From Escherichia coli (GTDB taxonomy: Bacteria > Pseudomonadota > Gammaproteobacteria > Enterobacterales > Enterobacteriaceae), in the NCBI RefSeq assembly GCF_046105845.1, contig NZ_CP151004.1: a DNA stretch of 64,000 bases. One strand, given 5' to 3'. Positions 1 to 27,279 of the stretch are shown one piece after another; position 1 is the first letter of the stretch; the number at the start of each line of letters is the position of its first letter. The translations under genes and the position numbers were made by a program. A model generated the notes under the pieces. It saw only the letters and a list, made by a program, of their open reading frames with translations. It was not told the DNA's origin and searched no databases.

Positions 1-672
<672 letters not shown>

Positions 673-854
673 AAAAGTTTGATGCTCAAAGAATTAAACT
701 TCGTAATGAATTACGTGTTCACTCTTGAGACTTGGTATTCATTTATCGTCTTGCGACGTTAAGAATCCGTATCTTCGAGTGCCCACACAGATTGTCTGAT
801 AAATTGTTAAAGAGCAGTGCCGCTTCGCTTTTTCTCAGCGGCGCGGGGTGTGCA

Positions 855-1027
855 TAATACGCTTTCCCGCTACAGAGTCAAGCATTTATTTTTGCTTTCT
901 CTGCCGGAATTCTCAGGAGAACCCCGCTGACCCGGCGGCGTGTTTGCCGTTGTTCCGTGTCAGTGGTGGCGCATTATAGGGAGTTATTCCGGCCTGACAA
1001 GAGGAAATTTAAAATAATTTTCTGACC
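855..1027 (-). promoter_or_regulatory. rRNA operon tandem promoters P1 and P2 with UP element
   Basis: Minus-strand reading gives the canonical rrn P1 core (TTGTCA -35 at 995-1000, TATAAT -10 at 973-978, GCGC discriminator) preceded by an A/T-rich UP element at 1001-1027; a P2-like TATTAT -10 at 855-860. Confidence 0.7.
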
Positions 1028-1152
1028 GCGCATTTTTTCAGCAAAAGCCCCGTTAATGTGCCATAAAACAAGCAATTTGCCGTTTTTGCAACCGTAATCA
1101 CACTTCCTGGTGGCATACTAAGGAGGAATAAAAAGAAAAAGGAAGATTAGTA

Positions 1153-1845
1153 ATGCCTTTAAGCGCACAACAGTTAGCTGCACAGAAAAACCTTTCGTAT
1201 GTTCTGGCTGAGAAGCTGGCGCAACGCATCTTAAAAGGTGAATATGAACCCGGCACCATTTTGCCCGGTGAGATTGAGCTGGGCGAGCAATTTGGAGTGA
1301 GTCGTACAGCGGTACGCGAAGCGGTCAAAACGTTAACGGCAAAAGGGATGGTTTTACCGCGACCGCGAATTGGTACCCGGGTAATGCCACAATCGAACTG
1401 GAATTTTCTTGATCAGGAATTGCTTACCTGGTGGATGACAGAAGAGAACTTTCATCAGGTCATCGATCACTTTCTGGTTATGCGTATCTGTCTGGAGCCG
1501 CAAGCTTGCCTACTGGCTGCAACGGTTGGCACCGCGGAACAGAAGGCGCATCTCAATACGTTAATGGCCGAAATGGTGGCATTAAAAGAGAACTTTCGCC
1601 GTGAACGCTGGATTGAGGTCGATATGGCCTGGCATGAGCATATCTATGAAATGAGCGCCAATCCGTTTTTGACCTCATTCGCCTCGCTATTCCATTCGGT
1701 TTATCACACTTACTTCACGTCAATTACCAGCGACACAGTGATAAAGCTGGATCTGCATCAGGCGATTGTCGATGCGATTATCCAAAGCGATGGCGACGCG
1801 GCATTTAAAGCTTGTCAGGCGCTGCTACGCTCACCTGATAAGTGA
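1153..1845 (+). CDS. yieP: GntR/FadR-family transcriptional regulator
   Basis: 230-aa ORF with N-terminal winged-HTH (GVSRTAVREAVKTL) and FCD-like C-terminus; position next to hsrA. Confidence 0.85.
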   Translation: MPLSAQQLAAQKNLSYVLAEKLAQRILKGEYEPGTILPGEIELGEQFGVSRTAVREAVKTLTAKGMVLPRPRIGTRVMPQSNWNFLDQELLTWWMTEENFHQVIDHFLVMRICLEPQACLLAATVGTAEQKAHLNTLMAEMVALKENFRRERWIEVDMAWHEHIYEMSANPFLTSFASLFHSVYHTYFTSITSDTVIKLDLHQAIVDAIIQSDGDAAFKACQALLRSPDK

Positions 1846-1867
1846 CACCCCGATAACAGGACATTGA

Positions 1868-3295
1868 ATGAGCGATAAAAAGAAGCGCAGTATGGCGGGT
1901 TTGCCGTGGATCGCGGCGATGGCCTTCTTCATGCAGGCACTTGATGCCACTATTCTGAATACCGCCTTACCCGCAATCGCTCATAGCCTTAATCGTTCTC
2001 CTCTCGCGATGCAATCAGCCATCATCAGTTATACGCTGACGGTGGCGATGCTTATTCCGGTAAGCGGATGGCTAGCCGATCGCTTCGGTACGCGTCGCAT
2101 ATTTACCCTTGCCGTGAGTCTGTTCACGTTGGGTTCTCTGGCCTGCGCACTTTCTAACTCGCTACCACAGTTGGTTGTCTTCCGGGTTATTCAGGGGATA
2201 GGCGGCGCAATGATGATGCCTGTTGCTCGGCTGGCCTTACTGCGCGCTTATCCTCGTAATGAGCTTCTTCCTGTATTGAATTTTGTCGCCATGCCGGGTC
2301 TGGTGGGGCCAATTTTAGGCCCCGTTCTTGGCGGCGTGCTGGTCACCTGGGCAACCTGGCACTGGATATTTTTAATCAATATCCCCATAGGTATTGCGGG
2401 CCTTCTTTACGCGCGCAAACATATGCCCAATTTCACCACCGCACGACGCAGATTCGATATCACTGGCTTTTTGCTGTTTGGCCTTAGCCTTGTTCTCTTC
2501 TCAAGCGGAATAGAGCTATTCGGGGAAAAGATTGTCGCCAGTTGGATTGCCTTGACGGTAATTGTCACCAGCATCGGGTTACTGCTTCTCTATATTCTCC
2601 ATGCACGACGCACGCCAAACCCATTAATTTCATTAGATTTATTTAAAACCCGCACTTTCTCGATCGGTATCGTAGGCAATATTGCAACCCGTCTGGGGAC
2701 CGGTTGTGTACCGTTCCTTATGCCATTGATGTTACAGGTAGGATTTGGTTATCAGGCGTTTATTGCCGGCTGTATGATGGCACCGACAGCGTTAGGTTCC
2801 ATTATTGCAAAATCGATGGTTACCCAAGTCTTACGTCGTCTGGGCTATCGCCATACGTTAGTGGGGATCACGGTGATTATTGGGCTAATGATCGCTCAGT
2901 TCTCTTTGCAATCACCGGCAATGGCGATATGGATGCTGATCTTGCCGTTGTTTATATTAGGGATGGCTATGTCGACGCAATTTACCGCGATGAATACCAT
3001 CACACTTGCCGATCTGACCGATGACAACGCCAGCAGCGGTAACAGTGTTCTGGCGGTCACGCAGCAACTGTCTATCAGTTTAGGCGTTGCTGTAAGTGCG
3101 GCCGTCCTTCGCGTTTATGAAGGGATGGAAGGTACAACGACTGTCGAACAATTCCACTATACGTTTATCACAATGGGCATTATTACTGTTGCTTCAGCAG
3201 CAATGTTCATGCTTCTGAAAACAACCGATGGTAATAATTTGATCAAAAGACAGCGTAAATCTAAGCCGAACCGCGTTCCATCAGAATCGGAGTAA
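1868..3295 (+). CDS. hsrA: MFS transporter (putative efflux)
   Basis: 475-aa ORF, multiple hydrophobic TM segments, MFS signature around [11 protein letters not shown]. Confidence 0.85.
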
Positions 3296-4253
3296 GTTGT
3301 AATCGTTGTTGCTGAAGGGTCGGTTGGGTTATCCGATGGATGAGTACATCAATCGCCAGCTCCCCCAGTTCATCTTTCGGTTGATGGATAGTGGTTAATG
3401 GTGGCGTCATAAAGCTTGCCAGTTCGATATCGTCATAGCCAATCACCGCGATATCCTGCGGAACCTGTAACTCTGCCTGATATAGCGCCTGGTAAACGCC
3501 AACAGCCATAGCGTCATTTCCGGTAAAGACGGCCTGAGGACGCAGCGGATGTGATAACAGTTGGCGCATAGCGTCAAACCCGCCGTTAAATTCAAAATCA
3601 CCAGTGACTTCATAGCCATCAGGAATGTTGAGACCCGCACGTTTCATCGCCGCCCGATAACCTTCCAACCGCAGGCGCGCCGGAGTTTTATCCAGCGGGC
3701 CGGTAATACAGGCGATACGGGTATGACCTTTATCGATCAGATATTGCGTTGCTAAGTCTCCGCCCAGCAACGAGTTATCCTGAATAAGATCGCTGTCGCC
3801 ATCGAACGGTGCCCAGTCCATCATCACGGTAGGCACTGTCGGATAACGTTGCATGATTTCACGCGAAGGCTGATGCGTTTCGGTGCACAGTAACAGCAAG
3901 CCATCAACGCGTTTTTGCATCAGCGTTTCCAGATTGCGATTCATCCGCTGTTCATCGCCTTCGGTATTGCATAGGACAAGACTATAACCGCGTTCGAAGC
4001 AGCTGCGTTCAACGCCACGCACCAGTTCAGAATAGAAAGGATTGGTACTGGCAGTGATCAACATGCCAATGGTATGTGTTTGATTGAGTTTGAGGCTACG
4101 CGCCAGAGCTGATGGCGCGTAATTGAGTTCTTTAATCGCCGCTTCAACTTTGGCGGTAATCGCTTCACTGACGAAGCGATCTTTATTGATAACGTGAGAA
4201 ACTGTTGAGGTAGAAACGCCCGCCAGGCGGGCAACATCTTTCATTGTAGCCAA
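3261..4253 (-). CDS. rbsR: LacI-family ribose operon repressor
   Basis: 330-aa ORF, N-terminal [26 protein letters not shown], periplasmic-binding-fold C-terminus; last gene of rbs operon. Confidence 0.9.
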
Positions 4254-4256
4254 GCG

Positions 4257-5186
4257 TCACCTCTGCCTGTCTAAAAATGCGTCGATCTCTTCACGCCACG
4301 GTACGGAAGGTTGTGCGCCTTTACGCGTTACGGCAATCGCAGCGGCGGCATGGGCAAAACGAATCGCCTCTGGCAATGGTTTTTCTTCCAGCAACGCCGT
4401 GATTAACGCGCCGTTAAAGGTATCTCCGGCAGCAATGGTATCGACAGCCTGCACCCGGAATCCAGGAACGCGCTGACCTTCACCATTCACGCTAGCCCAT
4501 ACACCACGACTTCCTAAAGTAATCAGTACAGTACGGATACCTTTTTCATGCAGTACCTGCGCCGCCTTCGCTGCATCTTCATCATTTTCAACACGAATAC
4601 CGGTGAGCTTTTCTGCTTCCGTTTCGTTTGGCGTAATAATGTCTACCAGTGCCAGCAGTTCGTCAGGAAGTTCGCGAGCCGGAGCCGGGTTAAGCGCAAC
4701 GATAGTCTTATTTTGATGGGCGATTTTCGCCGCTGCCATCACACTTTCGAGTGGTGATTCCAGCTGCATTAATAATGCTGACGCGTTGGCAATACGCTCA
4801 CGTTGCGCTTCAACCAGCGCAGGGGAAAGGGCAGCATTAGCGCCGGCATGAATACCGATGACATTCTCACCTTCGCCATTAACAAAAATCAGCGCCACAC
4901 CTGTTGATTCGCCTTTGATCACGCTGACCGGAGAAATATCGATGTTATCAGTGGCGAGCTGCTGGCGAACGCTCTCGCCAATGCTGTCATCGCCCGTACA
5001 GGCAATAAACGCGATATTCGCACCGCTACGCCCAGCAGCCACAGCCTGATTAGCGCCTTTGCCGCCAAATGCAACCTGATAGTGGTTACCGGTTACGGTT
5101 TCGCCTGGAGTAGGAAAAGATTGAAGATTAAGAATGTGGTCAGCATTAATGCTGCCAAGAACAACGAGGCTGCCTGCGTTTTGCAT
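4257..5186 (-). CDS. rbsK: ribokinase
   Basis: PfkB-family motifs (GGKGANQA, DTIAAGDTFNGA); start chosen at MQNAGSLVVLG rather than the upstream in-frame ATG of the ORF track. Confidence 0.9.
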   Translation of the reverse strand: MQNAGSLVVLGSINADHILNLQSFPTPGETVTGNHYQVAFGGKGANQAVAAGRSGANIAFIACTGDDSIGESVRQQLATDNIDISPVSVIKGESTGVALIFVNGEGENVIGIHAGANAALSPALVEAQRERIANASALLMQLESPLESVMAAAKIAHQNKTIVALNPAPARELPDELLALVDIITPNETEAEKLTGIRVENDEDAAKAAQVLHEKGIRTVLITLGSRGVWASVNGEGQRVPGFRVQAVDTIAAGDTFNGALITALLEEKPLPEAIRFAHAAAAIAVTRKGAQPSVPWREEIDAFLDRQR

Positions 5187-5311
5187 ATTCGGGATGTCCA
5201 TAAAATGCGCCACCGTGTTAGGGTGGCGCGTGCCCTGCTTTTCTTTATATTACACGTTCATCTGTCGATGCCGTATTTATGTCACCATCAGGTCATACAA
5301 CCTGATTAAAA

Positions 5312-6202
5312 CTACTGCTTAACAACCAGTTTCAGATCAACCGGATACTTAGCCTGAACTTTCTCACCTTTCAGTACTTTATCGGCGGTTTCGACGCCTT
5401 TCGCGCCAATCTGATCGGGTAGCTGAGCGATAGTCGCTGCTAGTTTGCCATCATTCACCGCTTTTTCGCCATCCGGTGTACCGTCAAATCCGACGACCAT
5501 CACATCCGATTTACCGGCAGTTTGCAGTGCGCGCAGCGCGCCCAGCGCCATTTCATCATTCTGCGCGAATACAGCCTGAACATCCGGATGTGCGGTCAAC
5601 AGGTTCTGCATTACGTTCAAACCTTTAGTGCGATCAAAATCTGCTGGCTGGCTGGCAAGAACATTAAACTTGTGAGCAGCAACAGCCTGCTGGAAGCCTT
5701 CGCCACGTTCACGGGCTGCGGATGTACCGGCAATGCCTTGCAGCTCGATAACTTTGGCACCTTCACCCGCTTTCTTCGCGATGTAATCACCGGCGATTTT
5801 GCCGCCCAGTACGTTATCAGAAGCAATGTGGCTCACCACTTCACCTTTCGTTGCCTGGCGGTCAAGAGTGATAACCGGGATGTTCGCCTGGTTAGCCATC
5901 TTCACAGCATTACCCACTGCGTCGGAGTCGGTCGGGTTAATCAGCAGAATTTTGGTGCCGCGAACGGTTAAGTCCTGCACGTTCGCCAGCTCTTTCGCCG
6001 GGTTGTTCTGGGAGTCCAGCACCACCAGGTTATAGCCAAGTTTATCCGCCTCTTTCTGCGCGCCATCTTTCAGCGATACAAAGAACGGGTTGTTAAGCGT
6101 GGAGACCACCAGCGCGATGGTGTCTTTTGCCATCGCATTCGCACTGACGGTGGCGCTTAGCGCAACTGCGGAAACCAGGGTAGCCAGTTTTTTCATGTTC
6201 AT
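5312..6202 (-). CDS. rbsB: ribose ABC transporter periplasmic binding protein
   Basis: Signal peptide followed by periplasmic sugar-binding fold; start at [10 protein letters not shown]. Confidence 0.9.
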
Positions 6203-6226
6203 ATTCAAGATGTCCTGTAGTCGTTA

Positions 6227-7192
6227 TTACTGCTTTTTGTTGTCTACCAGCACCGCCAGCAAAATCACCACCGCTTTGACGATCATCTGGTAATAGGAGG
6301 AAACACCTAACAAATTCAATCCATTATTAAGGAAGCCAAGAATTAATGCGCCGATCAACGTCCCAACAATGCGACCTTTTCCGCCCGCCAGACTCGTACC
6401 GCCCAGAACCACCGCAGCAATGGCATCCAGCTCATAGCCAGTCCCCGCCGTGGGTTGTGCGGAGGAGAGACGCGCCACTTCAATGATCCCGGCCAGCGAT
6501 GCCAGCAGACCACAAAGAGAATAGACGATGATTTTGATTTTATTGACGTTGATACCTGAAAGACGCGTTGCCGCTTCGTTGCCGCCCAGCGCGTAGATGT
6601 AACGCCCCAGACGCGTGTGATGCAGCATGTACCAGGCCGCGAGGAAGACAATTCCCATGATCCAGACTGGCGTCGGTACGCCCAGCGGACGACCGATCCC
6701 AAACCAGCCAAACAGATCGGCGTTCTCAGTAAAGCCGGTATTCACTGGGCTACCGTTGGTATAAACCATGGTCACGCCGCGCAGTAAAAGCATCATAACC
6801 AGCGTAGCGATAAACGCCTGGACGCGACCTTTCGCTACAATCACCCCGGTTACCGCACCAATTGCGGCACCTAATGCGAGAGCGGCAGCGACAGCCACCA
6901 GCGCATTGACTTCAATGCCGACGATAGATGCAGCAACTGCGCCGGTCAGCGCCAACAGAGAACCTACCGACAAGTCGATGCCCGACGTCAGGATCACCAG
7001 CGTCATCCCGACTGCCATAATGGCGTTCACCGAGGTTTGCTGGAGAATATTGAATAAGTTATTGATGGTGAAAAAGTTCGGACTTAACGTCGAGACAATC
7101 GCGATCAGCACCAGCAGAGCGATAAGCGATTTCTGCTCCATCAGCCACGCTTTCGTGAAATAACGGCGACCAGAGACAGTCTGGGTTGTCAT
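6227..7192 (-). CDS. rbsC: ribose ABC transporter permease
   Basis: 321-aa polytopic membrane protein in rbs operon order. Confidence 0.9.
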   Translation of the reverse strand: MTTQTVSGRRYFTKAWLMEQKSLIALLVLIAIVSTLSPNFFTINNLFNILQQTSVNAIMAVGMTLVILTSGIDLSVGSLLALTGAVAASIVGIEVNALVAVAAALALGAAIGAVTGVIVAKGRVQAFIATLVMMLLLRGVTMVYTNGSPVNTGFTENADLFGWFGIGRPLGVPTPVWIMGIVFLAAWYMLHHTRLGRYIYALGGNEAATRLSGINVNKIKIIVYSLCGLLASLAGIIEVARLSSAQPTAGTGYELDAIAAVVLGGTSLAGGKGRIVGTLIGALILGFLNNGLNLLGVSSYYQMIVKAVVILLAVLVDNKKQ

Positions 7193-7196
7193 TTTT

Positions 7197-8702
7197 TTAC
7201 TCCTGATTCACGCGATTAAGCTTGCCCACAGCGGCAGCCATTAACACTTCCTGGGTGGCCTGCTCACGAGTAAATTCCCCGCTGAGATGCCCTTCATGCA
7301 TGACGATGATGCGATCGCTCATGCCTAATACTTCTGGCATCTCCGATGACACCAGAATGATGCTCAATCCATCGGCTTTGAACTGGTTAATCAGTTGATA
7401 AATCTCTTTTTTCGCGCCGACATCTACGCCACGGGTAGGCTCATCGAGGATCAACACTTTGGGGCGTGTCATCAGACCGCGGGCAATCGCCACTTTTTGC
7501 TGATTGCCACCGGAAAGCAGACCAATTGCCTGTTCCATCGACGGCGTTTTCACATTGAACAGGCGAATAAAATCACTCACTGCCTGCTGTTCATCGGCAT
7601 GCTTCAAACTGCCGCCAGCGCGGCTAAAGTAGCGCAGCGCGGTCAGCGACATGTTCTCTTTTACTGACATGCCCAGCACTAAACCGTCGCGTTTACGGTC
7701 TTCGGAGATATAAACAATGCCGTTTGCCAGGCCATCCTGCGGTGAACGGGTAACAACTTCATGCCCATCCAGGGTGACGTAACCGCTGGTGCGCGGCAGT
7801 GCGCCGTAGAGCACTTTCATCAGTTCGGTACGACCTGCGCCCATCAAACCAGAGACGCCAAGAATTTCGCCTTTGCGTAAAGTAAAAGAGACATCGTTAA
7901 CGCCAGGTCCGCAGAGATTATCGACTTTCAGGCGAATATCTCCTGGCGCTTTGTCCAGGTGCGGATATTGATCTTCCAGCTTGCGGCCCACCATCATCTC
8001 AATCAGCGAATCTTCGGTCAGTGATGCTACTTCACGCTCAGCAATAAATTGCCCATCACGAAAAACGGTAACGTCATCGCAAATCTCGAAGATTTCTTTC
8101 ATGCGGTGGGAAATATAGACAATACCGCGGCCTTGCGATTTCAGCTCGCGGATGACGCGGAACAAGGATTCGGTTTCGGTATCGGTCAGCGCATCGGTCG
8201 GTTCATCCATAATGATGACTTTCGACTCAAAGCTCAGCACTTTGGCGATTTCAACCATTTGCTGGTCACCGATGGAAAGATCGCCCACCAGCTTGTCGCT
8301 TTTAAAGCGCAGGTTAAGTTTAGCCAGCAATTTATCCGCTTCGGCATACATGGTTTTCCAGTCAATTTTGCCAAAGCGATTAACAAACTCACGACCGAGG
8401 AAAATGTTTTCGGCAATGGTCAACTGCGGGATCAGGTTCAGTTCCTGATGGATAATCCCAATCCCGGCTTCCTGGGAAGATTTCGGCCCGGTAAACGTCG
8501 TTTCTTTCCCCAGCCATAAAAGCGTACCGGCATCGCGAGTATAGATACCCGTAAGCACTTTCATCATGGTGGATTTACCCGCACCGTTTTCGCCCACCAG
8601 CGCCATCACGCGGCCAGGATAGACATTTAACGCTGCACCCGAGAGGGCTTTTACGCCCGGGAAGGCTTTATCGATGCCTTTAAGCTGAAGTAATGCTTCC
8701 AT
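7197..8702 (-). CDS. rbsA: ribose ABC transporter ATP-binding protein (duplicated ATPase)
   Basis: 501-aa ORF with two Walker A motifs (GENGAGKST and GLMGAGRTE) and ABC signatures. Confidence 0.9.
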
Positions 8703-8709
8703 GACGGCC

Positions 8710-9129
8710 TCAGAACGTCACGCCAGCACAGAGAATGATATTCGCATACGGAGAACATTCTCCGCTGCGAATTACCGCCTGACTTTCTGCGGTTTGTTGT
8801 TTGAATTGTTCATGCGTGGTGTAACGAATTTCAATGGTATTTCCCTGGTGTTTTTGCAGCTGCTCAAGGTGAGTGAGCAACGTTTCGTGGAGTTGCGGAT
8901 TATGTTGTTTGATCTCTTCCGCGATAATGGCTGCCTCGACCTGCATTTCATTTGTGACGACGCCCAGCACCTGCATAAAAGAAGGTACACCCTGGGTTAA
9001 TGCCATATCTATACGCGTTGTACTTTTGGGGATGGGTAAACCAGCATCACATACCACCAGCGTATCGGTATGTCCCAGACGGGAGATCACCGATGAAATA
9101 TCAGAATTAAGAACGGTGCCTTTTTTCAT
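8710..9129 (-). CDS. rbsD: D-ribose pyranase
   Basis: 139-aa product starting [14 protein letters not shown]; first gene of rbs operon. Confidence 0.9.
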
Positions 9130-9140
9130 TTTTTTCTCCA

Positions 9141-9160
9141 TCAGCGAAACGTTTCGCTGA
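9141..9160 (-). promoter_or_regulatory. RbsR operator-like perfect palindrome upstream of rbsD
   Basis: TCAGCGAAACGTTTCGCTGA perfect 20-bp palindrome immediately 5' of the rbsD start; a related half-site CGAAACGTTT recurs near 9224-9236. Confidence 0.6.
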
Positions 9161-9295
9161 CCCGCAGTTTAATCCTGACTGAGTTGGGAAAACCATCGTG
9201 ACGTTACGGAAATGTGATCAACCTCGAAACGTTTTACATGGTGATTAACCATGAAAACAAAAACGCCCCCTTATGGAGAAAGGAGGCGTCTGGCG

Positions 9296-11164
9296 TTAGA
9301 TTTCGACCTGAGTACCCAGTTCGATAACCCTGTTTGGCGGGATTTCAAATTGATCCGGCGCACGCAGCGCATTACGTTGCAACAGCAAGTACAGCTTACC
9401 GCGCAGACGCAAATACCACGGGCGTTTGCCGAGGATCAACGACTCATGCGACATAAAGAAGGAGGTTTCCATCATCCGGCAACTTAATCCTTCCAGACCG
9501 CAGCGGTGGAATACTTCTTCCACGTTTGGCGTTTCTCGCCAACCATAACTTGCCACCACGCGCCAGAACGTGGGCGACAGTTGTTCAATCTGTACCCGAC
9601 GGACGTTATGGACATAAGGCGCGTCTTCGGTGCGCAGAGTTAACAGAATCACCCGCTCATGCAATACCTTGTTATGTTTAAGGTTATGCATCAGCGCAAA
9701 GGGAATGACGTTGATTGCACGTGACATATACACCGCGGTCCCAGGCACGCGAACGGGCGGTGATTTCTCCAGCGAAGCAATCATCGCCTCCAGAGAGTTG
9801 CCATGTTCATGCATCCGCCGCAGCAAGCGGAAACGCTCGCTCTTCCAGGTGGTCATCACGATAAACATCACCGTACCGAGGCTCAATGGCAACCAGCCGC
9901 CGGAGAGCAGTTTATCGAGGTTAGCGGTGAACAATGGAATATCGACACAAAGGAAAGCAATCAGGATCAGCGCAACAAAATACTTATTCCAGTGCCAGTT
10001 CTGACGTGCCACGGTAGTCGAGAGAATAGACGTCAGCACCATGGTTCCGGTCACCGCAATCCCGTACGCCGCCGCCAGGTTGCTGGAGTGCTCAAAGCTG
10101 ACAATCACAATCACGACCGCGACATAGAGCATCCAGTTCACAAACGGAATATAGATTTGCCCTGACTCCATTTCGGAGGTGTGAATAATGCGCATCGGCG
10201 ACAAATATCCCAGACGTACCGCCTGACGCGTCAATGAGAAGACGCCAGAGATAACCGCCTGCGAGGCAATTACCGTCGCCAGTGCGGCGATGATCAGCAG
10301 CGGGATCAGCGCCCAGTCCGGTGCCAACAGGAAGAACGGGTTCTTAATCGCTTCCGGGTTCTTTAACAACAACGCTCCCTGACCGAAGTAATTAAGGGTC
10401 AAGGAAGGTAATACGACGGTGAACCACGCCAGGCGAATAGGGAACTTACCAAAGTGCCCCATATCAGCATACAGCGCCTCGACCCCCGTAATTGACAGCA
10501 CCACTGCCCCTAATGCAATAAAAGAAACCGTTTTGTATTCAAGGAAGAAATGCACCGCCCACATCGGATTCAGCGCATGCAGCACTTCCGGGTTAGCAAT
10601 AATGCTACGTAACCCCAGTACTGCCAGAATCAAAAACCAGGTCAGCATGATCGGTGCAAACAACTTACCGACCATAGCCGTGCCATGTTTTTGAATCATA
10701 AATAATAAAGTGAGAACGATAATTGAGAGGGGAACTATCCAGGTATCCAGCTGCGGGGCGACGATTTCCAGACCTTCAATGGCAGACATCACCGAAATAG
10801 CGGGTGTTATGACGACTTCACCATAGAAAAAACTGCCGCCGATTAGCCCCATAATCACCAGCATTGATGTCGTTCGCGCCGACGTATTACGCCCGGCAAG
10901 CGACATCAACGTCAGGATCCCCCCTTCACCGGCGTTATCTGCCCGCATCACGAAGGTGAGATATTTAATGGAAACCACAAAAATTAGCAGCCAGAAGATC
11001 AGCGATAAAAAGCCAAACACGGCATCGCGTTCAACGCCAAAACCAAACTGGCCGGACAAACATTCACGAAGTGTATATAACGGGCTGGTACCAATATCGC
11101 CGTAGACAACTCCAATCGCCGCGAGGGTAATCGCGGGCAATGATTGCTTATTATCAGTGCTCAT
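9296..11164 (-). CDS. kup: low-affinity potassium uptake transporter
   Basis: 622-aa polytopic membrane protein with soluble C-terminal domain; N-terminus [30 protein letters not shown]. Confidence 0.9.
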
Positions 11165-11386
11165 AGACTAGTCTTTCGTTGAAATATGAAATGTGTGCTT
11201 AGTCCCTTGGCCCACAAAAAAGCGCACAGTATGCACGATTAACGGCAAAATCGTACTCCTAAATGCGGCCACATTAACCTGGCTCAAAGAAAAATACCCC
11301 CCCTTTGAGACTATTTTAGCCACCAGCAAGAAACGTCTATACTCGCAATTTACGCAGAACTTTTGACGAAAGGACGCCACTTCATT

Positions 11387-12883
11387 ATGGCTCACCCTCA
11401 TTTATTAGCGGAAAGAATTTCCCGCCTGAGCAGTTCGTTGGAAAAGGGGCTTTATGAACGTAGCCACGCCATCCGCTTGTGTTTATTAGCGGCATTAAGT
11501 GGTGAAAGTGTGTTCCTCCTTGGCCCGCCAGGCATTGCCAAAAGTTTGATCGCCCGGCGCTTAAAATTCGCCTTTCAGAATGCCCGCGCGTTTGAATATC
11601 TGATGACCCGCTTCTCCACGCCGGAAGAAGTTTTTGGTCCCCTTTCTATTCAGGCGCTAAAAGATGAAGGGCGCTATGAACGTTTAACCAGCGGTTACCT
11701 GCCGGAAGCAGAAATCGTCTTTCTGGATGAGATCTGGAAAGCGGGCCCGGCAATTCTTAATACCTTGCTCACCGCCATTAACGAGCGCCAGTTCCGCAAC
11801 GGTGCACACGTAGAAAAAATCCCGATGCGTCTGCTGGTGGCGGCCTCCAACGAGCTGCCGGAAGCAGACAGCAGTCTGGAAGCGTTATATGACCGCATGC
11901 TGATTCGTCTGTGGTTAGATAAAGTGCAGGATAAAGCGAATTTCCGCTCCATGCTGACCAGTCAACAGGATGAAAATGACAATCCGGTTCCTGCCTCCTT
12001 GCAGGTCACAGATGAAGAATATGAACGCTGGCAGAAAGAGATTGGTGAAATTACGCTGCCCGATCATGTATTTGAGCTGATTTTTATGCTGCGCCAGCAA
12101 CTGGATAAATTACCGGATGCGCCTTATGTCTCGGATCGTCGCTGGAAAAAAGCGATCCGCTTATTGCAGGCCAGCGCCTTTTTTAGCGGTCGCAGTGCCG
12201 TTGCCCCGGTAGATCTCATTTTGCTGAAAGATTGCCTGTGGTATGACGCGCAAAGCCTGAATTTGATACAACAACAAATTGATGTATTGATGACCGGTCA
12301 TGCCTGGCAACAGCAAGGGATGTTGACCCGCCTGGGCGCGATTGTGCAACGTCACCTGCAACTACAGCAGCAACAAAGCGATAAAACAGCCTTAACGGTA
12401 ATTCGTCTGGGCGGCATTTTCAGCCGTCGTCAGCAGTATCAACTCCCTGTTAACGTTACAGCTTCCACTCTGACTCTGCTGCTGCAAAAACCGTTAAAAC
12501 TGCATGATATGGAAGTGGTTCATATCTCCTTTGAGCGTAACGCGCTGGAACAGTGGCTGAGTAAAGGTGGTGAAATTCGCGGCAAACTGAACGGTATCGG
12601 CTTTGCTCAGAAATTGAATCTGGAAGTGGATAGCGCCCAACATCTTGTTGTACGCGATGTAAGTTTACAAGGCAGTACGCTGGCACTTCCCGGTTCATCG
12701 GCTGAAGGTCTGCCAGGTGAAATAAAACAACAACTGGAAGAGCTTGAAAGCGACTGGCGCAAGCAACACGCTTTATTCAGCGAACAGCAAAAATGTCTGT
12801 TTATCCCTGGCGACTGGTTAGGTCGCATTGAAGCCAGCCTACAGGATGTCGGCGCACAGATTCGCCAGGCACAACAATGCTAA
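11387..12883 (+). CDS. ravA: AAA+ MoxR-family ATPase
   Basis: Walker A GPPGIAKS; start chosen at [11 protein letters not shown]; overlaps viaA by 7 nt. Confidence 0.9.
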
Positions 12884-14328
12884 CGCTGGATACGCTTAAT
12901 GTGATGCTGGCCGTCAGCGAAGAGGGATTGATCGAAGAGATGATCATCGCGCTGCTGGCCTCACCGCAGCTGGCAGTCTTCTTTGAAAAATTCCCACGAC
13001 TGAAGGCGGCAATCACTGATGATGTTCCCCGCTGGCGTGAGGCGCTGCGCAGTCGGCTGAAAGATGCCCGAGTCCCGCCGGAACTCACCGAAGAGGTGAT
13101 GTGCTATCAGCAAAGCCAGCTCCTCTCCACGCCGCAGTTTATTGTGCAGCTACCACAGATCCTGGACTTACTGCATCGTCTGAATTCCCCATGGGCAGAA
13201 CAAGCCCGACAGTTGGTTGATGCTAACAGCACGATCACTTCAGCGTTACACACGCTTTTTCTCCAGCGTTGGCGTTTAAGTCTGATCGTGCAAGCAACGA
13301 CGTTAAATCAACAGCTATTAGAAGAAGAACGCGAACAACTGTTGAGTGAAGTTCAGGAACGCATGACGCTGAGCGGGCAACTTGAACCCATTCTCGCAGA
13401 TAACAATACCGCAGCTGGTCGTCTGTGGGATATGAGCGCCGGTCAGCTTAAACGTGGCGACTATCAGTTGATTGTGAAATACGGTGAATTTCTTAACGAA
13501 CAGCCGGAACTGAAACGCCTGGCAGAACAGCTGGGGCGTTCCCGGGAAGCCAAATCAATACCGCGCAACGATGCGCAGATGGAAACCTTCCGCACCATGG
13601 TGCGCGAACCGGCGACAGTTCCTGAGCAGGTTGATGGTCTGCAACAAAGCGATGATATTTTACGTCTCCTGCCGCCAGAACTGGCGACACTGGGGATAAC
13701 GGAACTGGAGTATGAGTTTTACCGTCGGCTGGTGGAAAAACAGTTGCTCACCTATCGCCTGCACGGTGAGTCGTGGCGTGAAAAAGTGATCGAACGCCCG
13801 GTGGTGCATAAAGATTACGACGAACAGCCGCGCGGACCGTTTATTGTCTGCGTGGATACTTCCGGCTCAATGGGCGGCTTTAATGAACAATGTGCGAAAG
13901 CGTTCTGCCTGGCCTTGATGCGCATTGCTCTCGCTGAAAACCGGCGCTGCTATATTATGTTATTTTCCACCGAGATCGTCCGTTATGAGCTTTCAGGCCC
14001 ACAAGGTATTGAGCAAGCGATCCGCTTTTTAAGTCAGCAGTTTCGTGGCGGCACCGATCTTGCCAGTTGTTTTCGCGCCATTATGGAACGCTTGCAAAGT
14101 CGGGAGTGGTTTGACGCCGATGCGGTGGTGATTTCTGATTTTATCGCCCAGCGGTTGCCTGACGACGTGACGAGCAAAGTGAAAGAGTTGCAGCGGGTAC
14201 ATCAGCATCGCTTTCATGCCGTGGCGATGTCGACACATGGCAAACCCGGCATCATGCGCATTTTCGATCATATCTGGCGCTTTGATACCGGGATGCGAAG
14301 CCGCCTGCTCAGACGCTGGCGGCGATAA
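12877..14328 (+). CDS. viaA: VWA-domain protein partner of RavA
   Basis: 483-aa ORF with C-terminal VWA/MIDAS motif (DTSGSM); coupled to ravA. Confidence 0.9.
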
Positions 14329-14332
14329 ATTA

Positions 14333-15325
14333 TTACAGCAGAGAAGGGACGCTCTCGCGAACAGCTGCCGGCCATACACCACACTGAACCTGGCCGATAT
14401 GTGGCAGTTGCAGCAGCAGCATGGTCAAACGAGACTGCCCGATACCGCCGCCGATGGTCTGCGGCATTTCACCGCGCAGCAGCGCCTGATGCCACTCCAG
14501 CTCCAGGCGATCTTCGTCACCGGTCAGCGCCAGCTGATGCTTCAGCGTGTCGGCATCCACGCGGATCCCCATGGAAGAAAGCTCAAACGCATCTTCCAGT
14601 ACCGGGTTCCACACCAGAATATCTCCGTTCAGACCCGCATGGCCCAGCTCTGACGGGGTGCTCCAGTCATCATAATCCGGTGCGCGCACGTCGTGGCGAT
14701 GACCATCGCTCAGCTTGCCGCCAATCCCGACAAGGAATACCGCACCAAGATCTTTCGCTATCGCCCGCTCACGCCCTTTGGCATCAAGATCCGGATAACG
14801 AGACAGTAACTCCTGGCTGTGTACGAAGTGGATCTGATCCGGCAGGAACGATGCCAGGCCAAACTCTTCGCTAACTGCAGCTTCGGTTGCTTTAATTCCC
14901 GCCCAGATCGCCTCTACCGTGCTTTTCAGAGTCGAGAATTGACGCTCGCCGTCGCCCATTACGCGTTCCCAGTCCCACTGATCAACATAGACCGAGTGCA
15001 ACGGGGAAAGACGGTCTTCATCGGGGCGAAGGGCTTTCATGTGGGTGTACAGCCCTTCGCCCGCGCTGAAGTCGTGTTGCCCTAAGGTCTGACGTTTCCA
15101 CTTCGCCAGTGAATGAACCACTTCGAACTGGGCATCAGGCAGAGCTTTCACTTTTACCTGCACCGCTTTTTCACAGCCCGACAAGTTATCCTGCGTGCCA
15201 TCCCCCACACGGCTAAGAATCGGCGCCTGGACTTCGATCAGCCCCAGACGTTCTTCCAGTTGACGAGAAAAGTGAGATTTCACGAAGCTAATTTGACGTT
15301 GTTTGGCAATGTAAGCGGTTTTCAT
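14333..15325 (-). CDS. asnA: aspartate-ammonia ligase (asparagine synthetase A)
   Basis: 330-aa ORF, class II aaRS-like fold; divergent from asnC. Confidence 0.9.
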
Positions 15326-15476
15326 TTTTTATACTCCTGCGTCCTGTTGCTTATGATTAAGCAACAAAAACCGACACACATGCAATAATCATTCAATAAA
15401 AAGCCTAACTCACTTTTGATTCATTAAAAAAGAAGGCTAAAATAGAATGAATCATCAATCCGCATAAGAAAATCCT

Positions 15477-15935
15477 ATGGAAAATTATCTAATCGACAAT
15501 CTGGACCGTGGCATCCTGGAAGCATTAATGGGCAATGCGCGCACCGCTTACGCCGAACTGGCGAAACAATTTGGCGTCAGTCCGGGGACGATTCACGTTC
15601 GAGTAGAGAAAATGAAGCAGGCGGGGATCATTACCGGGGCGCGTATTGATGTCAGCCCGAAGCAGCTCGGTTATGACGTAGGCTGCTTTATCGGCATTAT
15701 ATTAAAGAGCGCCAAAGACTATCCTTCCGCGCTGGCGAAACTGGAAAGCCTTGATGAAGTCACTGAAGCCTATTACACCACCGGCCACTACAGCATCTTT
15801 ATAAAAGTGATGTGCCGTTCGATCGACGCTCTCCAGCATGTACTTATCAACAAGATCCAAACAATTGATGAAATTCAGTCCACCGAGACATTGATCGTCC
15901 TGCAAAACCCGATCATGCGTACCATCAAGCCCTGA
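15477..15935 (+). CDS. asnC: Lrp/AsnC-family transcriptional regulator
   Basis: 152-aa ORF with N-terminal HTH and RAM domain. Confidence 0.9.
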   Translation: MENYLIDNLDRGILEALMGNARTAYAELAKQFGVSPGTIHVRVEKMKQAGIITGARIDVSPKQLGYDVGCFIGIILKSAKDYPSALAKLESLDEVTEAYYTTGHYSIFIKVMCRSIDALQHVLINKIQTIDEIQSTETLIVLQNPIMRTIKP

Positions 15936-16024
15936 TCGGCTTTTTTAATCCCATACTTTTCCACAGGTAGATCCCAACGCGTTCACAGCGTACAATACGC
16001 CACTCTTAATAAAGGTGGCGGTTT

Positions 16025-16468
16025 ATGGCAGATATCACTCTTATCAGCGGCAGCACCCTCGGCGGTGCCGAATATGTAGCAGAACACCTGGCTGAAAAGC
16101 TGGAAGAGGCGGGTTTTACCACCGAAACGCTGCACGGTCCGCTGTTGGAAGATTTATCTGCCTCGGGGATCTGGCTGGTTATCAGCTCCACCCACGGTGC
16201 CGGAGACATTCCGGACAACCTTTCTCCTTTCTATGAAGCATTGCAGGAACAGAAGCCCGATCTTTCTGCGGTCCGCTTTGGCGCTATCGGTATTGGCAGT
16301 CGTGAATATGACACCTTTTGTGGGGCTATCGATAAACTCGAGGCAGAACTCAAAAATTCCGGTGCAAAACAGACGGGCGAAACTCTGAAGATCAACATTC
16401 TTGATCACGACATTCCGGAAGATCCGGCAGAAGAATGGCTGGGATCGTGGATTAATTTACTCAAATAA
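16025..16468 (+). CDS. mioC: flavodoxin-like FMN-binding protein
   Basis: 147-aa flavodoxin fold (ITLISGSTLGGAEYVAEHL); immediately flanks oriC. Confidence 0.9.
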   Translation: MADITLISGSTLGGAEYVAEHLAEKLEEAGFTTETLHGPLLEDLSASGIWLVISSTHGAGDIPDNLSPFYEALQEQKPDLSAVRFGAIGIGSREYDTFCGAIDKLEAELKNSGAKQTGETLKINILDHDIPEDPAEEWLGSWINLLK

Positions 16469-16477
16469 GTATACAGA

Positions 16478-16758
16478 TCGTGCGATCTACTGTGGATAAC
16501 TCTGTCAGGAAGCTTGGATCAACCGGTAGTTATCCAAAGAACAACGGTTGTTCAGTTTTTGAGTTGTGTATAACCCCTCATTCTGATCCCAGCTTATACG
16601 GTCCAGGATCACCGATCATTCACAGTTAATGATCCTTTCCAGGTTATTGATCTTAAAAGCCGGATCCTTGTTATCCACAGGGTAGTGCGATCCTAATAAG
16701 AGATCACAATAGAACAGATCTCTAAATAAATAGATCTTCTTTTTAATACCCAGGATCC
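16478..16758. other. chromosomal replication origin oriC
   Basis: DnaA boxes: TGTGGATAA at 16491-16499 (R4), TGTGTATAA at 16566-16574 (R2), TTATCCACA at 16671-16679 (R1). Three AT-rich 13-mers GATCTnTTnTTTT present as reverse complement at 16693-16705, 16708-16720 and 16724-16736. Dense GATC sites; GGATCC boundary at 16753-16758. Confidence 0.92.
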
Positions 16759-16846
16759 CAGGTCTTTCTCAAGCCGACAAAGTTGAGTAGAATCCACGGC
16801 CCGGGCTTCAATCCATTTTCATACCGCGTTATGCGAGGCAATCACC

Positions 16847-18736
16847 ATGTTTTATCCGGATCCTTTTGACGTCATCATCATTGGCGGGGGTCATGCAGGC
16901 ACCGAGGCCGCGATGGCCGCGGCGCGTATGGGTCAACAGACTCTGCTTTTGACACACAATATCGACACTCTGGGGCAGATGAGCTGCAACCCGGCGATCG
17001 GCGGTATTGGGAAGGGACATCTGGTAAAAGAAGTGGATGCACTCGGCGGTCTGATGGCGAAAGCGATCGATCAGGCGGGTATCCAGTTTAGGATACTAAA
17101 CGCAAGCAAGGGACCAGCGGTTCGCGCTACCCGTGCTCAGGCGGATCGTGTGCTCTACCGGCAGGCGGTACGTACGGCGCTGGAGAACCAACCGAACCTG
17201 ATGATCTTCCAGCAGGCGGTTGAAGATCTTATTGTCGAAAACGATCGCGTGGTCGGTGCTGTTACCCAAATGGGACTGAAGTTCCGTGCCAAAGCCGTCG
17301 TGCTCACCGTTGGGACGTTCCTCGACGGTAAAATTCATATCGGTCTGGATAACTACAGCGGTGGTCGTGCTGGTGATCCGCCGTCCATTCCGCTCTCTCG
17401 CCGTTTGCGTGAACTGCCGCTGCGCGTTGGTCGTCTGAAAACCGGGACACCGCCGCGTATTGATGCGCGTACTATCGACTTCAGCGTGCTGGCGCAACAG
17501 CATGGCGATAACCCAATGCCGGTATTCTCGTTTATGGGTAATGCGTCCCAGCATCCACAGCAGGTGCCGTGTTATATCACCCATACCAACGAGAAAACCC
17601 ATGATGTGATCCGCAGTAATCTCGATCGTAGCCCAATGTATGCAGGGGTGATCGAAGGTGTCGGCCCACGCTACTGCCCGTCGATCGAAGACAAAGTCAT
17701 GCGCTTCGCCGACAGAAATCAGCATCAGATCTTCCTTGAACCGGAAGGGCTGACCTCAAACGAAATTTATCCGAACGGTATCTCCACCAGCCTGCCGTTC
17801 GATGTGCAGATGCAAATCGTCCGCTCCATGCAGGGGATGGAAAACGCGAAGATCGTGCGTCCGGGTTATGCCATTGAGTATGACTTCTTCGATCCACGCG
17901 ACCTGAAACCGACGCTGGAGAGCAAGTTTATCCAGGGGCTGTTCTTTGCTGGTCAGATTAACGGCACTACCGGTTACGAAGAAGCCGCTGCGCAAGGTTT
18001 GCTGGCCGGTCTTAACGCTGCCCGTCTGTCTGCTGACAAAGAAGGTTGGGCTCCGGCGCGTTCTCAGGCCTATCTCGGCGTACTGGTTGATGACCTGTGC
18101 ACTTTAGGAACTAAAGAACCGTATCGTATGTTTACCTCGCGCGCAGAATATCGTCTGATGCTGCGCGAAGATAATGCAGATCTGCGTTTGACTGAAATCG
18201 GTCGTGAACTGGGCCTGGTGGATGACGAACGTTGGGCGCGCTTTAACGAGAAACTTGAGAATATCGAGCGTGAGCGTCAGCGTCTGAAATCGACCTGGGT
18301 AACCCCGTCGGCGGAAGCTGCAGCCGAAGTGAATGCTCACCTGACTGCGCCGCTTTCCCGTGAAGCCAGTGGTGAAGATCTGCTGCGTCGTCCGGAAATG
18401 ACTTATGAAAAATTAACCACGCTGACGCCGTTTGCCCCTGCGTTGACAGACGATCAGGCGGCGGAACAGGTTGAGATTCAGGTTAAATACGAAGGTTATA
18501 TCGCGCGCCAGCAAGATGAGATCGAAAAGCAGCTGCGTAACGAGAACACCCTGCTACCAGCGACGCTGGATTACCGCCAGGTATCCGGTCTTTCTAACGA
18601 AGTGATCGCCAAACTTAACGATCACAAACCGGCCTCTATCGGCCAGGCTTCGCGTATTTCTGGCGTCACGCCTGCGGCCATCTCCATTCTGCTGGTGTGG
18701 CTGAAAAAACAGGGTATGCTGCGTCGTAGCGCATAA
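16847..18736 (+). CDS. mnmG: tRNA uridine 5-carboxymethylaminomethyl modification enzyme
   Basis: 629-aa ORF, FAD-binding [10 protein letters not shown] motif near N-terminus. Confidence 0.95.
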
Positions 18737-18799
18737 CGCATTAAAAATGCCTGGTAAGCACCCGCTTACCGGGCAACGCATCAAGAACAGGTAATCACC

Positions 18800-19423
18800 G
18801 TGCTCAACAAACTCACCTCTCTGCTGAAAGACGCAGGAATTTCGCTTACCGATCACCAGAAAAACCAGCTAATTGCCTACGTGAATATGCTGCATAAATG
18901 GAATAAAGCGTACAACCTGACTTCGGTCCGCGATCCTAATGAGATGCTGGTACGCCATATTCTCGATAGCATTGTGGTGGCACCGTATCTGCAAGGTGAA
19001 CGGTTTATCGATGTCGGCACCGGACCAGGACTGCCTGGCATTCCACTCTCTATCGTACGTCCTGAAGCCCACTTCACGTTGTTGGATAGCCTTGGTAAAC
19101 GCGTGCGTTTCCTTCGTCAGGTGCAACATGAGCTTAAACTGGAGAATATTGAGCCAGTACAGAGCAGGGTAGAAGAGTTTCCTTCTGAGCCGCCATTTGA
19201 TGGCGTAATTAGCCGCGCTTTTGCCTCTCTGAACGATATGGTGAGCTGGTGCCACCATCTTCCTGGTGAGCAAGGTCGTTTCTACGCGCTGAAAGGCCAA
19301 ATGCCGGAAGATGAAATCGCTTTGTTGCCCGAAGAATATCAGGTCGAATCAGTGGTTAAACTTCACGTTCCGGCCCTGGATGGCGAACGTCATCTGGTGG
19401 TGATTAAAGCAAATAAAATTTAA
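18800..19423 (+). CDS. rsmG: 16S rRNA m7G527 methyltransferase
   Basis: 207-aa ORF with SAM-binding [10 protein letters not shown] motif; non-ATG start (GTG). Confidence 0.9.
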
Positions 19424-19490
19424 TTTTTATCAAAAAAATCATAAAAAATTGACCGGTTAGACTGTTAACAACAACCAGGTTTTCTACTGA

Positions 19491-26980: not shown

Positions 26981-27279
26981 CGCGTATTGACCCGTCCTGA
27001 AGAGCGTTCACATAGATCCTGCTGATATAAAACCCCCTGTTTTCCCGTTTATTCATTGATCGAAATAAGAGCAAAAACATCCACCTGACGCTTAAATGAA
27101 GGTATTGCCTTAATTTTCTGCAGACAAAAGGCGTGACGATGGTCGAAAATGGCGCTTTCGTCAGCGGGGATAATCCGTTATTGAACAATTTATCCTCTGT
27201 CCATTTCACGATGAAAAAAATGTAGTTTTTTCAAGGTGAAGCGGTTTAAATTCGTTCTCAAATTACAGTCAGGACGCGT

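Follow-up and report, generated by a model that had tools for sequence, protein, structure and literature searches.

The intact chromosomal replication origin between mioC and mnmG in an Escherichia coli strain and its near-identity to the oriC of K-12

The window, that is, the whole stretch of 64 kb of Escherichia coli DNA analysed here, contains the replication origin flanked by two genes of the plus strand: mioC (16025..16468), transcribed toward oriC, and mnmG or gidA (16847..18736), transcribed away from it. MioC scored 244.9 bits against a cut-off of 158 (NCBIfam NF006531) and MnmG 1016 bits against a cut-off of 525 (TIGR00136); both products are well above their NCBIfam equivalog cut-offs. 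The earlier note was right in placing an intact oriC between these two genes. Equivalog matches in NCBIfam also confirmed the neighbouring RsmG, AsnC and AsnA, and the gene order asnA-asnC-mioC-oriC-mnmG-rsmG-atpIBEFHAGDC is the one of K-12.

The whole oriC comprises 16476..16758 on the minus strand, as defined by a gap-free alignment of 99% identity to K-12, by the map of its elements and by a cluster of GATC sites. Its orientation is reversed with respect to the conventional map, the plus strand of the window being the minus strand of K-12: the R4 end is at the left beside mioC and the unwinding element at the right beside mnmG. The conventional left end, with the BamHI site and the duplex-unwinding element (DUE), corresponds to 16758, which we take to be position 1 of the classic BamHI-based oriC numbering, the R4 end lies at approximately 16491 and the classic 245-bp minimal origin is 16492-16736. 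The interval of the earlier note (16478-16758) holds the elements that it was said to hold; its start splits the GATC at 16476-16479. The 'oriC' feature of the RefSeq K-12 record has 232 bp (NC_000913.3 3925744-3925975) and is equivalent to 16505-16736 in the window; as it starts exactly at 13-mer L and ends inside C1, lacking the essential R4, it is unsuitable as a functional boundary.

A terminator scan identified no terminator-like site between the mioC stop codon and oriC, in keeping with the mioC transcripts known to read through into oriC. On the other side, a consensus scan identified a sigma-70-like promoter, TTCTCA-16-TAGAAT, at 16766..16793 on the plus strand, pointing into mnmG and away from oriC and matching in position what we take to be the known gidA/mnmG promoter (PgidA). 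The mioC promoter region contains the DnaA box TTTTCCACA (15957..15965, plus strand), 60 bp upstream of the mioC start codon, and the asnC-mioC intergenic sequence is identical to that of K-12; PMC10380432 mentions that mioC is repressed in a DnaA-dependent manner.

The left edge of the window truncates a 16S rRNA gene on the minus strand, of which the first 672 nt (1-672) are present, covering the 5' 662 model positions. This fragment probably belongs to the rrnC-equivalent operon, judging by its position about 15.8 kb from oriC and by what we take to be the position of rrnC in K-12. No tRNA genes were identified inside the 64-kb window. The atp operon (atpIBEFHAGDC) is located on the plus strand to the right of oriC, beyond rsmG on the same strand, and the 16S fragment on the minus strand to the left, so both are transcribed the way the forks move as they leave the origin. 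The explanation of the earlier note for the presence of rrn and atp here is the standard gene-dosage argument, by which proximity to the origin would raise the dosage of these genes. The spacer between atpC and glmU contains a full-length Rfam match to the enterobacterial sRNA STnc410 (187.9 bits, 27039-27196, minus strand), which runs antisense to its neighbouring genes.

Three DnaA boxes of the origin match the consensus TTATNCACA perfectly: R4 (TTATCCACA; 16491-16499, minus strand), a high-affinity box identical to that of K-12 and forming the right end of the DnaA-oligomerization region; R2 (TTATACACA; 16565-16573, minus strand); and R1 (TTATCCACA; 16671-16679, plus strand), also of high affinity and adjoining the DUE. 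The span from R4 through R2 to R1 is 189 bp, as in K-12 and in other genera. A further box with one mismatch to the consensus, TTATCCAAA at 16530-16538 on the plus strand, overlaps C2 and C3 and is taken here, from established knowledge, to be R3.

The low-affinity sites form two arrays. The right array (16503-16544, minus strand) comprises C1 (16503-16511, TTCCTGACA), I3 (16514-16522, TTGATCCAA), C2 (16525-16533) and C3 (16536-16544), and the left array (16583-16624, plus strand) comprises I2 (16583-16591, CTGATCCCA), I1 (16594-16602, TTATACGGT), tau2 (16605-16613, AGGATCACC) and R5M (16616-16624, TCATTCACA). Coordinates within the arrays were derived from a 2-bp spacing rule, anchored on R5M in the left array and on I3 in the right one, the I3 sequence being the one that we take for this site. 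Whatever the exact coordinates, the sequence under every array site is identical to K-12 in the alignment, and the same is true of R1, R2, R3, R4 and R5M. The rule itself, with the sites of each array exactly 2 bp apart and all facing one way, is that of PMC4451416, and the R5M sequence TCATTCACA is as in the oligonucleotides of PMC6158602.

Over the whole 64-kb window perfect DnaA boxes (TTWTNCACA) are not enriched (10 vs 6.6 expected) and only their clustering stands out, three of the ten being located within 190 bp (simulated P = 0.003). Another perfect TTATCCACA, at 63317-63325, was considered as a dnaA-promoter box and rejected: it is a chance occurrence inside tnaB, and the window ends short of dnaA.

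The DUE (16693..16736, minus strand) comprises three 13-mers, all on the minus strand and identical to K-12: R (16693-16705, GATCTCTTATTAG), M (16708-16720, GATCTGTTCTATT) and L (16724-16736, GATCTATTTATTT). These AT-rich 13-mers (consensus GATCTnTTnTTTT) directly flank R1, the arrangement of an oriC of the E. coli type. Mismatches to the consensus are one in L, one in M and two in R. A scan of the whole window for the consensus with at most one mismatch found L and M, missed R and gave no enrichment (3 vs 1.9 expected); R was identified by homology because of its two mismatches. Nor does AT-richness single out the DUE locally, as the rsmG-atpI spacer (19403-19453) holds a 40-mer with 95% A+T, richer than the DUE. 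An AT-rich cluster of 12 bp, TATTAAAAAGAA (16737-16748, minus strand), flanks 13-mer L just beyond the minimal origin, an element described in PMC10380432.

The GATC cluster comprises 13 sites in 281 bp (16478-16758), where the density of the whole window would give 1.34, with a Poisson P of about 2e-9 per window of this size and about 5e-7 after correction for the number of such windows. The best 281-bp window in the 64 kb starts at 16474 and contains 14 sites, the maximum elsewhere being 6. Eleven sites are found in 16491-16736 and all of these fall within the classic 245-bp minimal origin; eleven is the number published for oriC (PMC10380432), and all GATC sites are unchanged with respect to K-12. 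The elements listed in the earlier note, namely R1, R2 and R4, the three 13-mers and the GATC cluster, are all present at the positions given here.

Two further candidate sites are consensus-like sequences, each with one substitution with respect to K-12 at an unspecified position. The first is the 15-mer GAACAAC-G-GTTGTTC (GAACAACGGTTGTTC; 16539..16553, without strand), a putative Fis site in the gap between C3 and R2 that matches GnnYAnnnnnTRnnC perfectly; the consensus and the location between R2 and C3 are those of PMC10380432 and PMC4451416. The second is the core of a putative primary IHF-binding site (IBS1), AGATCAATAACCT, with ATCAA/TTGAT, between R1 and R5M; its exact placement at 16641..16653 on the minus strand is predicted from the IBS consensus and from the position between R1 and R5M (PMC10380432, PMC5716108).

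The cumulative G-C minimum of the 64-kb window, at single-base resolution, falls on 16879, some 120 bp away from the edge of the origin, and the mean GC skew is -0.040 to the left and +0.052 to the right. In bins of 2 kb the skew is negative in 1-16000 with the exception of 12-14 kb, and positive from 16001 onward with the exception of 60-62 kb (-0.002). The check by GC skew put forward in the earlier note, carried out on these 64 kb, thus gave a change of sign at the locus.

The segment 16440-16860 was aligned with the reverse complement of the K-12 region with no gaps and four substitutions, an identity of 99% over 420 bp. One substitution (16451) is inside the mioC coding sequence; the other three, given as K-12>window, are 16546 T>G, 16646 G>A and 16683 C>T, and the 378-bp mioC-mnmG intergenic region differs from K-12 nowhere else. 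None of the three alters a DnaA box, a 13-mer or a GATC site, and the comparison with the K-12 minimal oriC that the earlier note had proposed recovered every DnaA box and 13-mer unchanged. The window-wide counts of DnaA boxes and 13-mers are unremarkable alone. The alignment to K-12 is the decisive evidence. Divergence from K-12 is 0.79 differences per 100 bp in the intergenic region vs 1.99 in the mostly coding flanks (13480-19480); the lower intergenic value, as would be expected under purifying selection, is counted as support.

A query of 461 bp (16400-16860) matched 5,424 of the 5,426 complete E. coli genomes with a median of one copy, always on the chromosome, never on a plasmid, and always between annotated mioC and mnmG. 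This distribution, along with the K-12 alignment, the K-12 synteny and the local switch in GC skew, upholds the earlier statement that the window sits at the chromosomal origin. The three intergenic substitutions differ in frequency. The G at 16546, the central and unspecified base of the palindromic Fis 15-mer, was identified as an exact 61-mer in 895 of 5,410 complete genomes; the A at 16646, an unspecified base beside the invariant IHF core TTGAT/ATCAA, in 11 of 5,408 (about 0.2%); and the T at 16683, in the spacer between R1 and 13-mer R, in 61 of 5,421 (about 1.1%). Only the last two alleles are rare; that at 16546 is a common polymorphism. The full 461-bp haplotype is identical in a single genome of the 5,426, strain AST215 (NZ_AP043621.1).

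AST215 is 100% identical over 16400-16860 and 99.26% identical and collinear over 1-30642 of the window. It lacks the 5.4-kb lpf fimbrial insert (glmS-pstS) and the 8.4-kb segment 40744-49154, both present in the window, and its identity is 98.3-98.9% beyond pstS vs 99.26% to the left of glmS. The identity values and accessory differences suggest recombination breakpoints close to the origin region. With accessory segments differing from AST215, the surroundings of the origin are a mosaic, though oriC itself is nearly invariant.

The fimbrial insert (30643-36070) is a 5.4-kb chaperone-usher operon between glmS and pstS with a GC content of about 44%, coding for a major subunit of 190 aa, a PapD-like chaperone of 243 aa, an usher of 840 aa and a fimbrial protein of 356 aa, and is annotated as lpfA/B/C-O113 (long polar fimbriae) in matching genomes. 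It was identified in 2,340 of the 5,426 complete E. coli genomes, the best match being just 97.2% identical, so the allele of the window is not closely represented. The 8.4-kb segment (40744-49154) lies between phoU and an effector island and most likely contains the bgl operon (bglF, bglB, bglH), which the annotations of other genomes place within the queried 30000-54900. The island (49156-56540) has a low GC content (30-33% vs 48% for the window) and three large ORFs: one of 834 aa without Pfam match and two, of 395 and 808 aa, with weak pentapeptide-repeat matches. Annotations in matching genomes are T3SS effector EspY4, type III effector protein and pentapeptide repeat-containing protein. 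Of the 5,426 genomes, 1,109 carry the island, only 7 of them with an identity of at least 99%.

Conservation in other genera was analysed by scanning one genome per species for the frame R4-N(60-70)-R2-N(90-105)-R1, a search pattern that by its construction makes R1, R2 and R4 conserved in the resulting set. About 17 genera, from Enterobacterales and Vibrionales, have the identical 189-bp span: E. albertii, Citrobacter, Enterobacter, Klebsiella, Siccibacter, Pantoea, Erwinia, Dickeya, Yersinia, Providencia, Morganella, Photorhabdus, Xenorhabdus, Plesiomonas and Vibrio presented it, and in Aliivibrio the span is 188 bp. Elements conserved across genera independently of the search pattern were I2, I1, tau2, R5M, the IHF-core TGATC and the 13-mer GATC cores, the latter invariant or nearly so in the 19 aligned origins. 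Wherever a column of this 19-sequence alignment is conserved at 90% or more, the base of the window is the majority one. At columns 16546, 16646 and 16683 all four bases were seen; E. albertii and Citrobacter also have the G at 16546, Dickeya the A at 16646 and E. albertii the T at 16683. Given this variation across genera, the three substitutions would most simply be neutral.

The same pattern also matched unrelated phyla: Blautia and other Lachnospiraceae, Deinococcus, Meiothermus, Actinomycetota and Gloeomargarita (the loci of these non-relatives include L017, L018, L022, L030, L040, L041, L053 and L078). Several of these matches are on both strands at one place, which indicates palindromic box arrangements, and they are presumably the origins of these organisms or box clusters of their dnaA regions.

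The rarity of two of the alleles could be read as a sign of a functional oriC with a regulation quantitatively different from K-12, in IHF binding or initiation timing, by means of 16646 A and 16683 T. The counts (11 of 5,408 and 61 of 5,421, with the full haplotype in one genome of 5,426) agree with such a reading, as does the location of 16646, which adjoins the invariant TTGAT core within the region protected by IHF. However, the published consensus sequences leave both bases unspecified (PMC10380432), all four bases occupy these columns in functional origins of other genera (A in Dickeya, T in E. albertii), and DnaA boxes, 13-mers and GATC sites are all unchanged, which leaves a regulatory difference very improbable. 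A quantitative effect of the rare IHF-core allele 16646 A is likewise unlikely; if the reading were true, the rare haplotype (16646 A and 16683 T) would subtly alter IHF binding or unwinding and with them initiation timing in the lineage.

Far less probable still is a cluster of DnaA boxes titrating or regulating DnaA in the manner of datA or DARS and not acting as an origin: clustered boxes together with an IHF site are indeed found in datA and DARS2 (PMC10380432), but the full DUE with three 13-mers, the cluster of 11 GATC, the mioC/mnmG context and the 99% identity to the defined oriC stand against it, and the K-12 alignment already refutes it. Chance co-occurrence, for which it counts that short motifs are common (10 vs 6.6 expected for TTWTNCACA, 3 vs 1.9 for the 13-mer consensus), has a vanishing probability and is already refuted, as a gap-free 99% identity over 420 bp to the K-12 oriC is impossible by chance and the GATC cluster (corrected P of about 5e-7) and the box clustering (P = 0.003) also oppose it.

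The interval 16476-16758 is therefore confirmed as the E. coli oriC, intact, in its canonical location and near-identical to the K-12 origin, as seen directly in the anatomy of the sequence, in homology and synteny, and in the local switch of the skew; the alignment, motif, synteny, skew and distribution analyses gave no evidence against this identity. The locus is almost certainly the single chromosomal oriC of this Escherichia coli strain and would be expected to function exactly as in K-12. DnaA-dependent initiation is predicted from the 99% identity to the experimentally defined K-12 origin, the mechanism of which has been dissected (PMC5716108, PMC10380432, PMC4451416, PMC6158602). By near-identity to that origin, the steps of binding and unwinding would be the following: DnaA would stay on the high-affinity boxes R1, R2 and R4 and fill the low-affinity arrays cooperatively; Fis would be displaced and IHF would bend the DNA between R1 and R5M (Fis-to-IHF switch); the neighbouring AT-rich 13-mers R, M and L would unwind and DnaB would be loaded, leading to bidirectional replication. 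After firing, the dense hemimethylated GATC sites would be sequestered by SeqA. Few DNA elements are as well characterised as the E. coli origin, and the oriC identified here, an element already known, adds no new biology. Its only use is as a landmark: it shows that the window lies at the chromosomal origin, which way replication runs on either side and how the window is oriented with respect to the K-12 map.

Compared with known systems, the locus resembles datA, DARS1 and DARS2 in being a cluster of DnaA boxes, some of those regulatory clusters having IHF and Fis sites (PMC10380432). As described in the same work, they lack unwinding 13-mers and dense GATC, have other map positions and are not origins. 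The oriC regions of other Enterobacterales and Vibrionales share the AT-rich cluster with the window, whereas their spacers diverge (mean column identity 73%) and the peripheral GATC sites at 16476, 16484, 16517, 16663 and 16754 are common to only 6-7 of the 19 sequences. A further known system is the oriC of K-12 MG1655 (NC_000913.3, around 3925744-3925989, between mnmG/gidA and mioC), which has the same length, order of elements, spacing and flanks, with all 9-mer DnaA sites, the three 13-mers and the 11 GATC sites identical to those of the window.
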